From: Nitrospirales bacterium
Lineage (GTDB): Bacteria > Nitrospirota > Nitrospiria > Nitrospirales > UBA8639
NCBI GenBank assembly: GCA_963555755.3
Contig: OY820905.2
Span: 3,712,001 to 3,776,000 of the forward strand
Direction of reading: 5' to 3'
DNA: 64,000 nucleotides
Part shown: one piece after another, positions 30,868-32,669 of the stretch
Layout of the letters: each line of letters opens with the position of its first letter
Position numbering within the stretch: the stretch's first letter is position 1
Notes under the pieces: model-generated
Told to the model about the DNA's origin: nothing
What the model saw: only the letters and a program-made list of their open reading frames with translations
Databases searched by the model: none
Program-made: the position numbers and the translations under genes

Positions 30868-31083
30868 AGGGCCTGTTGAATATTGCACTCCAACAGCCAA
30901 TAAAAGCTCCAAATGAGCCACGCATCGTCAGTGGGAGGGAATGTTCAAAAAAGCATGCCCTGAGTCTTTCCGAAGGGTCTATCCAGCAAGGCCGCAGCCA
31001 TTTTGACGAGCGGAGCGTACTCATAGTACGTGAGCACGGCAAAATGGCGAGAACGCCGCTGGCGGCTTTTTTCAACATTCCCT
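30868..31083. repeat. Extended family G element
   Basis: G core at 30936-31083 plus an upstream arm starting AGGGCCTGTTGAA. Confidence 0.75.
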
Positions 31084-31100
31084 TGAAAGAAACCGTGGGT

Positions 31101-31129
31101 CCTGAGCCCTTCGGCAGGCTCAGGACAGA
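31101..31129. repeat. REP-like repeat split by the IS110 (other half at 32631-32640)
   Basis: CCTGAGCCCTTCGGCAGGCTCAGGACAGA...GTCGAAGGGC rejoins into a CCTGAG/CTCAGG plus CCCTTCG/CGAAGGG palindromic repeat. Confidence 0.7.
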
Positions 31130-31158
31130 CTTCCTATGAGGTTGTCAAGTCCTTTTAA

Positions 31159-32382
31159 TTACGCAGTTGCTCTTAGGTATTGTTTGGTCATATTCGCCAA
31201 ATGATATTGCTCGTCGTATGGCATCTGGTGTTCCCACATGCGGAAAATGATTTTCAACCATTTGGCCCCTAAGGCCCGCAGGGCCTGGTTGTGCCGATGG
31301 CCGCGGGTGCGACACTGTTGATAATAATGCTTCGCCCACTCACTGTGTCTCAACGACTGAAAGGCCAACTGCCAAATTGCCTGCCGAAGGTGCTTGTTGC
31401 ACGCAACACGAAATCGCACGACACAACTTTTCCCACTCTGCCGTGTCAGCGGCACGGTGCCGGCCTGGGCTTGCAGATGGCTCCAGGATGCCCAGCGGCC
31501 TGGGGCATCGCCCAATTCCGCCCACAAGCGGGGAATCATCGTGCCACTAAGGCCTCCCGGCAGCGTCCGCATCCACTCAGCTGCCGGGAGGGTTCCGAAA
31601 AAACGTTCAATCTCCGTCTTGTATTCCGTCACCGCGCGGTGGGTCACCAACACCTGCGCGATCAGCACGTCCACCAATCGGGCCTTGGCCCGCACGACAT
31701 GCTCGGGCACCGGTATTTGGGGCGCTTTCAGTTGCGTCCACAACTCGGTTGTCCGTGCCGGGCCCAGCCGATGCTGGCGCGCAAACCGCTGCCACTGGCT
31801 CAGCCGTAGCGTGGTCAGGGTGGCCGGGGTCGGATAGGTTTGCAGAAAATCCAACGCCAGCTGCGTAGTCAGGTCCCCAAAGAGATCCAGCACACGGGGG
31901 TAATATTCCTTCAGCATGCTCGTGAGCTGATTGAGCATCCGCGTCTGTTGGCGCCCGAGTCGCGCATGATCGCGGGTCAGGAGTTTTAATTCTTGGGCCG
32001 CGACCGAGCTGGGCGGCAGGGGCAGGAGGTGCCCGTGATCGGTGCGCAGAAACTCCGCCAAGACCCGCGCATCAAAGGGGTCACTTTTCGAGCCACTCAT
32101 CCGAAACCGATCGCGGGCGCGATCTAAGGCTTTGGGATTCACAGGATACACGACCACGCCATGATCCAACAGATAATCCACCACGCGCCCGTCGGGTTTT
32201 TCAATGGCCGCCCACAGCTCAATGCCGGCGGCACGCCATTCATCAAGTTGTCGCCCCCAGACGCTCAGCCCCGTTGGCGTATGGGCCACCATCCCTTCCC
32301 AGACGATCGCGCCCGTCTCCTCTCGCACACACACGCCATGCTGCTCCTCGCCCCAATCCACGCCCAGGTAATACCGTGCCAT
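31159..32382 (-). CDS. IS110 DEDD recombinase/transposase
   Basis: YLGVDW, AIE and KSDPFDA (DEDD RuvC-like); QAGTVP..RQSGK serine motif; AAGGAG RBS before ATG 32382. Confidence 0.95.
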   Translation of the reverse strand: MARYYLGVDWGEEQHGVCVREETGAIVWEGMVAHTPTGLSVWGRQLDEWRAAGIELWAAIEKPDGRVVDYLLDHGVVVYPVNPKALDRARDRFRMSGSKSDPFDARVLAEFLRTDHGHLLPLPPSSVAAQELKLLTRDHARLGRQQTRMLNQLTSMLKEYYPRVLDLFGDLTTQLALDFLQTYPTPATLTTLRLSQWQRFARQHRLGPARTTELWTQLKAPQIPVPEHVVRAKARLVDVLIAQVLVTHRAVTEYKTEIERFFGTLPAAEWMRTLPGGLSGTMIPRLWAELGDAPGRWASWSHLQAQAGTVPLTRQSGKSCVVRFRVACNKHLRQAIWQLAFQSLRHSEWAKHYYQQCRTRGHRHNQALRALGAKWLKIIFRMWEHQMPYDEQYHLANMTKQYLRATA

Positions 32383-32389
32383 GAATTTC

Positions 32390-32612
32390 TCCTTTCTCGA
32401 CGCTTCCCGTAGCGCGGTGAACGACTCGTTGGCCTTATATCGGTCCTCAGGGGGACGACTTCCTATTGAACGTTGCTCGCCGTTCCTTGCCTGGGGGGGA
32501 CTGTCTGTCCTGGCTCCTTGAGAGGGAGTAGGCCTTTTGGGTCCTCGCCCCAGCAAGCGCCAGGGATGCATGATCATGAATAAAGAACAGAACGTTACCA
32601 CAAATAACTCCA
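32390..32612 (-). ncRNA. Predicted IS110 bridge RNA
   Basis: Non-coding left end contains 8-10 nt segments matching both element ends and the target flank, arranged around short hairpins (see findings). Ends are approximate. Confidence 0.75.
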
Positions 32613-32669
32613 GAGGATTATATAAGGCCTGTCGAAGGGCCTATTCTGAGTGAAGAGAATACATCTCTG

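Follow-up and report, generated by a model that had tools for sequence, protein, structure and literature searches.

The window analyzed here, a stretch of 64,000 nucleotides from a Nitrospirales bacterium, contains an IS110-group element that occupies the CT of a hairpin repeat dispersed in the host genome, and a predicted bridge RNA of the IS621 type very probably guides its recombinase there (we put the probability at about 0.92). Sequence comparison establishes the element ends, the CT core, a conserved predicted two-loop fold, and guides that change with the insertion site. On this evidence the element, which we call copy A, is an intact IS110-group insertion sequence at 31129-32624 (1,496 bp plus one CT core). 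Its neighbors are the nnr/yjeF and tsaE genes. The left end is long (242 nt) and the right end short (30 nt), which is the layout of the IS110 group and not that of IS1111; a long left end containing the RNA, combined with a short right end, is the IS110-group criterion in the part of PMC11208160 used here. The element and its flanks comprise the following features:

31099..31126, no strand assigned: host palindromic repeat hairpin with a 10-bp stem and an 8-nt loop; 60 module copies
31121-31126, minus strand: right target arm GTCCTG, in the host hairpin
31127..31128, minus strand: right copy of the CT core, from empty sites and relatives
31129..31158, minus strand: right end, with the left-donor arm ATAGGAAGT at 31129-31137 and a -35 box TTGACA at 31143-31148
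31159..32382, minus strand: IS110 recombinase gene, 407 aa, PF01548 and PF02371, with D9, E61, D101, D104 and S316
32389..32395, minus strand: AAAGGAG, resembling a ribosome-binding site (putative function)
32617..32624, minus strand: start of the left end, with the right-donor arm TATAT at 32620-32624 and a -10 box TATAAT at 32617-32622 (putative promoter role)
32625..32626, minus strand: left copy of the CT core, from empty sites
32627..32635, minus strand: host left target arm TCGACAGGC, in which 6 of the 8 core-proximal bases match the left guide

A preliminary description of this DNA had recognized an IS110 element, and the protein bears this out: it matches PF01548 (the DEDD RuvC-like domain; E = 2e-29) and PF02371 (the serine domain; E = 6e-12), and its catalytic residues are conserved. 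D9 and E61 are each kept in 127 of 128 aligned relatives, D101 and D104 each in 126 of 127, and S316 in 114 of the 116 relatives aligned at that position. The only structurally solved relatives are IS621 and ISCro4, both of them weak matches (E about 2e-7 to 5e-7). The relatives collected for comparison comprised 52 genome loci, the best 80 of 419 metagenome loci, and five more sequences (137 in all). We parsed 120 of them and missed 17, and removal of one duplicate left 119, with a left junction in 111, a right junction in 91, and both junctions in 87.

We read the core as CT, as in IS621, because the empty sites in one genome of the same genus and in two metagenomes have the sequence ...GC-CT-GTCCTG. 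In the genome (G061), the interval between nnr and tsaE is empty and reads ...CGACATGC-CT-GTCCTGAGCC; the four other tsaE loci from this genus that we examined are without the repeat. Metagenome contigs in runs X15 and X10 join position 31126 to position 32625. In the X15 contig, window bases 31109-31126 stand directly before 32625 and the flank is identical to the window, and in X10 the flank is a variant. The short core at the joined ends, present as a single copy in the empty sites of G061, X15 and X10, is an IS110 trait. Among the relatives the element ends are constant, CT-TATA on the left and AAGT-CT on the right (in patterns that demanded CT), and the word shared by both junctions stops at CT in 52 of 87 cases and is 1-2 bases longer in the others. 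Because our junction finder demanded CT, its presence at all of the relatives' junctions is partly by construction, and it is the empty sites that are the independent proof of CT.

The preliminary description had instead proposed a bridge system with a different core, AG, and right guides of 8-10 nt, a reading that we consider almost certainly wrong. AG is indeed repeated near both junctions at this one locus, and the 10-nt matches are exact, but an AG core predicts the empty site TTCGAC-AG-TCTGTCC whereas the empty sites actually read ...GC-CT-GTCC, and AG is found at that position in only 2 of 111 relatives. It would also give to the host a GT that, in every one of 62 unique right junctions (a pattern-selected set), belongs to the constant end of the element. 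Handshake bases had been taken for donor or target guide, and so both ends of the element were misplaced. A single-G core, read from the three paralogues in this genome, was another candidate and was dropped once the relatives gave constant AAGT-CT and CT-TATA ends.

With the core placed at CT, the predicted RNA and its guides can be laid out as follows:

32419..32485, minus strand: predicted donor-binding stem-loop, from the constrained fold, the consensus fold and pair counts
32432..32433, minus strand: donor-loop handshake guide GC, which would pair with target positions 6-7 (GC) in the scheme given in part of PMC11208158
32434..32440, minus strand: right donor guide ATATA-AG, pairing with core CT and TATAT
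32457..32466, minus strand: left donor guide ATAGGAAGT plus a core-facing C, an exact match to the right end
32486..32557, minus strand: predicted target-binding stem-loop, from the constrained fold, the consensus fold and pair counts
32503..32504, minus strand: target-loop handshake guide AC, which would pair with donor positions 6-7 (GT)
32505..32512, minus strand: right target guide CAGGAC-AG, pairing with core CT and GTCCTG; covariation over 33 guide types
32530..32540, minus strand: left target guide CCAAAAGGC plus core CT; covariation over 50 guide types; matched perfectly by two empty genomic sites

Three sequence matches had been reported between the left end and the junctions, and all are exact: 32459-32466 is the same as 31130-31137 (CTTCCTAT), 32431-32440 is the reverse complement of 32620-32629, and 32503-32512 is the reverse complement of 31121-31130. 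The chance expectation per 245-nt end, counting both strands, is ~0.007 for a given 8-mer and ~0.0005 for a given 10-mer. The three matches sit inside the predicted loops and are conserved or covarying among relatives. The CTTCCTAT match is truly 9-10 nt long, consisting of ATAGGAAGT and one core-facing C (32457-32466), and by their sequence the extra matched bases are handshake guides of the IS621 type. If parts are assigned by the handshake scheme in the portion of Hiraizumi 2024 (PMC11208158) used here, GTCTGTCCTG consists of donor positions 6-7 (GT), the core and the right target arm, and lies opposite the handshake AC and the right target guide; GGCCTTATAT consists of a spare G, target positions 6-7 (GC), the core and the right donor arm, and stands opposite the right donor guide and the handshake GC. 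Both handshakes are complementary to their partners at copy A (AC to donor GT, and GC to target GC). The match between an expected left target guide, CCAAAAG, and the flank TCGACAG had been called poor, which is literally true (4 of 7) but omits the adjoining GC and CT, both of which match; in the right register, 6 of 8 left-guide positions plus CT are matched at copy A's site.

The 223-nt sequence 32612-32390, which had been suggested for folding, folds alone no better than its shuffles (z = 0.37), and the guides are partly paired when it is folded freely. If the guides are constrained to stay unpaired, two stem-loops with 12+12-nt internal loops result. Unconstrained RNAalifold on 46 left ends (copy A and, after thinning by hand, 45 of the other 59 distinct guide combinations) produces the identical two-stem-loop fold, in agreement with the proposed minus-strand layout in which the target loop is 5' of the donor loop. 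In the consensus fold 98.1% of cells are paired and 16 of 30 pairs are compensatory (both sides changed), compared to none as high among 500 shuffles and 21-51% paired in slid controls, although these pair counts are favored because the structure was scored on the alignment from which it came. A search of Rfam found no family over the element, its single match in the window being a tRNA elsewhere.

As the preliminary description had supposed, the guides are directly readable: they covary with the insertion sites over 33 right and 50 left guide types. At the five core-proximal positions the right guide types agree with their flanks at frequencies of 1.00, 0.95, 0.95, 0.98 and 0.90 (shuffled, 0.32-0.38), and position 6 has no family-wide covariation (0.17). 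The left guide types, each scored in the better of two registers, match on average 6.3 of 8 positions versus 3.4 when shuffled under the same rule (highest shuffle, 4.0), which rules out a candidate reading in which the left guide is unused in the family. A few types that the parser had mis-registered are retained, and the shuffles overstate significance because the relatives are kin.

The same covariation is seen within the genome, which has two paralogues of copy A: B (C1:3599334-3600834, locus L001; 81% amino acid identity) and C (C1:2415126-2416628, L002; 75%), the latter frameshifted near codon 25. Each of the three is in a different dispersed host repeat, and the right target guide shifts with the right flank (CAGGAC/GTCCTG in A, TACGA/TCGTA in B, and CCCGA/TCGGG in C). 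It is therefore very improbable that the matches are due to chance or are remnants of terminal repeats and that the protein alone selects the repeat. Such a reading fits the unremarkable fold of the single sequence, and the bridge RNA is a prediction from sequence, but guides change with flanks across the 33 and 50 types as well as among the three paralogues, and there are compensatory changes in the stems. We therefore prefer guidance by a bridge RNA.

The handshake bases vary among relatives. In the target loop they are AC in 93 of 119 and AG in 26 of 119. Those in the donor loop start with G in all 85 unique pairs, opposite C (79) or T (6); a GG handshake accompanies C or T at target position 6 in 11 of 11 cases, and GC accompanies G in 56 of 74, counts that come from related sequences and not from independent events. 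The left target guide lies in two registers within an equally long loop (alignment A3, columns 24-35), with 32 of the 50 types shifted by one base. Most of these shifted types place bases other than CT opposite the core, and over all 50 types CT stands there in 13. In copy A the left target, right target and right donor guides pair with the core, and the left donor guide faces it with CG. In the part of the Durrant supplement used here, an IS621-like row has CA, not CT, facing the core in the donor loop, so left guides that pair incompletely with the core also occur outside this clade.

The target is, as first described, a dispersed palindromic host repeat. It is a short palindrome with many dispersed copies and is extragenic at this locus, and hence REP-like: CCTGTCCTGAG occurs 62 times in the genome compared to 2.15 expected, and the module CTGTCCTGAR-N2-9-GAARG has 60 genome copies. 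When the empty site is folded as single-stranded DNA, the 10-bp stem starts just right of the core. The genome has 178 CT-GTCCTG sites, of which two match the left guide at 8/8 positions and two at 7/8; all four belong to one A-rich variant of a larger repeat, and all are empty. Two genome sites thus match all 16 guide positions. Copy A's own site has two left-arm mismatches (6/8 left, 6/6 right), though both perfect sites are empty. The target hairpin has beside it, at 30948-31084, another dispersed repeat of larger size, for which BLAST gave well over 100 hits in the genome. In many copies of the larger repeat the CTGTCCTGAG...GAAGG module is present as an optional insert, an arrangement suggestive of small mobile units nested in one another.

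In the subclade closest to copy A the left guide matches only 3-6 of 8 positions in 8 guide/site pairs, versus a mean of 6.9 in the other 77. This may reflect relaxed reading of the left arm or drift since insertion, in a sample that is small and related. Possibly, though we think it unlikely, targeting in this subclade is mainly by the right guide, the core, the handshake and about three proximal left bases, with the far left guide relaxed and the target hairpin perhaps helping. The last three left-guide bases match in 7 of the 8 pairs, and the totals are not clearly above a background of 60 repeat sites (fraction at least as high, 0.12-0.87), but those sites come from copy A's genome and not from the genomes of the subclade members. 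Near relatives share one right guide but differ in their A-rich left guides, and the right target arm is a hairpin stem. One-arm reactions have been reported for IS621 (in the part of 10.64898/2026.08.31.748434 used here), and the ISPpu10 target has a stem-loop (likewise for 10.64898/2026.03.19.712850). Against relaxation, the 8 pairs are few and related (three of them come from almost identical elements that share one repeat variant); guides may also have changed by drift once the elements had inserted; and the two unoccupied sites in copy A's own genome that match its left guide perfectly suggest that this guide is under selection over its full length.

If the left guide is relaxed, the closest subclade would be a natural right-arm-dominant bridge recombinase, a proposal that we regard as tentative and rather improbable: it would read a right arm of 6 nt together with the core, the handshake and some three bases on the left, and the target hairpin would replace the far left guide. 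One element could then use many variants of a repeat family. On the same tentative reading, the wider clade would accept a left guide in either of two registers, in most cases with no match to the core. As a separate observation, a 4-nt bulge in the target would improve the left-guide matches at L013-L015 (judged by eye and post hoc, in one repeat variant).

Guidance by the bridge RNA, which we favor, would proceed by analogy with IS621 (scheme drawn from portions of PMC11208160, PMC11208158 and PMC13626964). Circularization of the element would bring TTGACA and TATAAT together, 18 nt apart, and from this junction promoter the bridge RNA would be transcribed, starting near 32610. Through base pairing, the donor loop of this RNA would recognize ATAGGAAGT-CT-TATAT and its target loop CAAAAGGC-CT-GTCCTG. 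The RNA would be bound by a recombinase tetramer, which would use S316 to nick the top strands after CT, and exchange would be favored by pairing of the incoming strands with the handshake bases AC and GC. Copy A would have landed at a near-cognate repeat variant, matching at 6/8 left and 6/6 right positions. Whether IS621 is excised by cut-out or copy-out is disputed in the literature that we drew on in part.

The predicted circle junction rebuilds a sigma-70-type promoter, TTGACA-18-TATAAT, by sequence only, and the junction spacing to a TATA-type box is 16-18 nt in all 87 complete relatives. A promoter scan of the integrated element gave 2 weak sites versus 0.7 expected, with none at the left end. 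The assembled contigs of runs X8, X11, X1 and X4 contain no end-to-end joint, and contigs cannot show absence. Among the contigs of RNA run X8, the left end has a depth of about 6, the same as the next gene, with no sign of enrichment.

Since its predicted guide RNA matches both the element's own ends and its landing site around the usual CT core, copy A is a member of a class already described, as the preliminary description had stated, and its function is predicted to be IS621-like: the IS621-type features that can be read from sequence are present, core pairing by all four guides being seen in part (three of them in copy A). As far as the parts of the sources used here describe IS621, the two systems share an RNA in the long left end, the guide order LTG-RTG-LDG-RDG in two internal loops, a CT core, handshake dinucleotides beside RTG and RDG and a junction promoter (the RNA, its handshakes and the promoter being predictions here), short ATA/TAT donor arms, a REP-type target, and DEDD and serine domains. 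They differ in the protein, which is distant (phmmer E = 4.8e-7; 328 aa in IS621 versus 407 aa here), and, by the same partial sources, in the guides, which are particular to this element, in the right target arm (5-6 nt versus 2 in IS621) and in the left one (up to 8-9 nt versus 7). Unlike IS621, this clade has two left-guide registers, with core-facing CT confined to the 13 left-guide types noted above.

Other published IS110 elements, again as covered by the parts of the papers used here, show comparable behavior. ISPpu10 and ISPpu9 of Pseudomonas putida are likewise guided into a dispersed intergenic palindrome (10.64898/2026.03.19.712850; PMC12288879), although their repeat and guides differ from those of this element. 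ISPpu10 has CT duplicated at the site and a stem-loop in the target, as here, but its main hairpin is 5' whereas ours is on the right-target side (10.64898/2026.03.19.712850). The ISEc21 seekRNA has a non-coding region upstream of the transposase that matches both target strands, as here, and natural retargeting in a 72%-identical relative is comparable to what we see (PMC11187229). Bridge RNAs were predicted in 85.7% of catalogued IS110-group elements, and longer right guides were reported in IS621 orthologues (both in the part of PMC11208160 used here). REP targeting, longer right guides, natural retargeting and one-arm matching are therefore already in print. We found no publication on this clade by title or abstract, and in the parts of the Durrant supplements used here no row was assignable to it among the matches listed. 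A clean, distant clade of 407-aa proteins with at least 50 natural left and 33 right guides would be a further programmable recombinase, its natural guides are a data set for guide rules, and it includes three paralogues in one genome retargeted to three different host repeats. The relaxed left guide, if true, would exemplify in nature the one-arm matching by which off-target insertions arise.

By a class-wide DNA search, the left end is present in 3 of 401 genomes, and the relatives include some that are 88-90% identical. The genome also contains a fragment, D (C1:3130928-3131185, L003), which has a left end only, lacks the left guide and inner hairpin through deletion, and retains just a few codons of the transposase; a fuller element is found in genome G059 (L007/L016) between flanks near-identical to those of D. 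Two other right-end-like and two left-end-like words in the genome were set aside as chance, with no RNA nearby. Three contigs in run X10 stop or branch at window position 32628, just after the core and GC, and one of them enters a different flank, an indication that close relatives are inserted at other sites as well. Many of the Rokubacteria relatives (L021-L027, L029, L130-L141) are apparently inside frame-like repeated coding sequence and not in hairpins, and their hosts are other mobile elements or paralogous genes (flanks judged by eye). For the Binatia and deltaproteobacterial relatives (L040-L060), the targets are palindromic repeats of the type CCCTCACCC...CT-CTCCC, and the guides match them.
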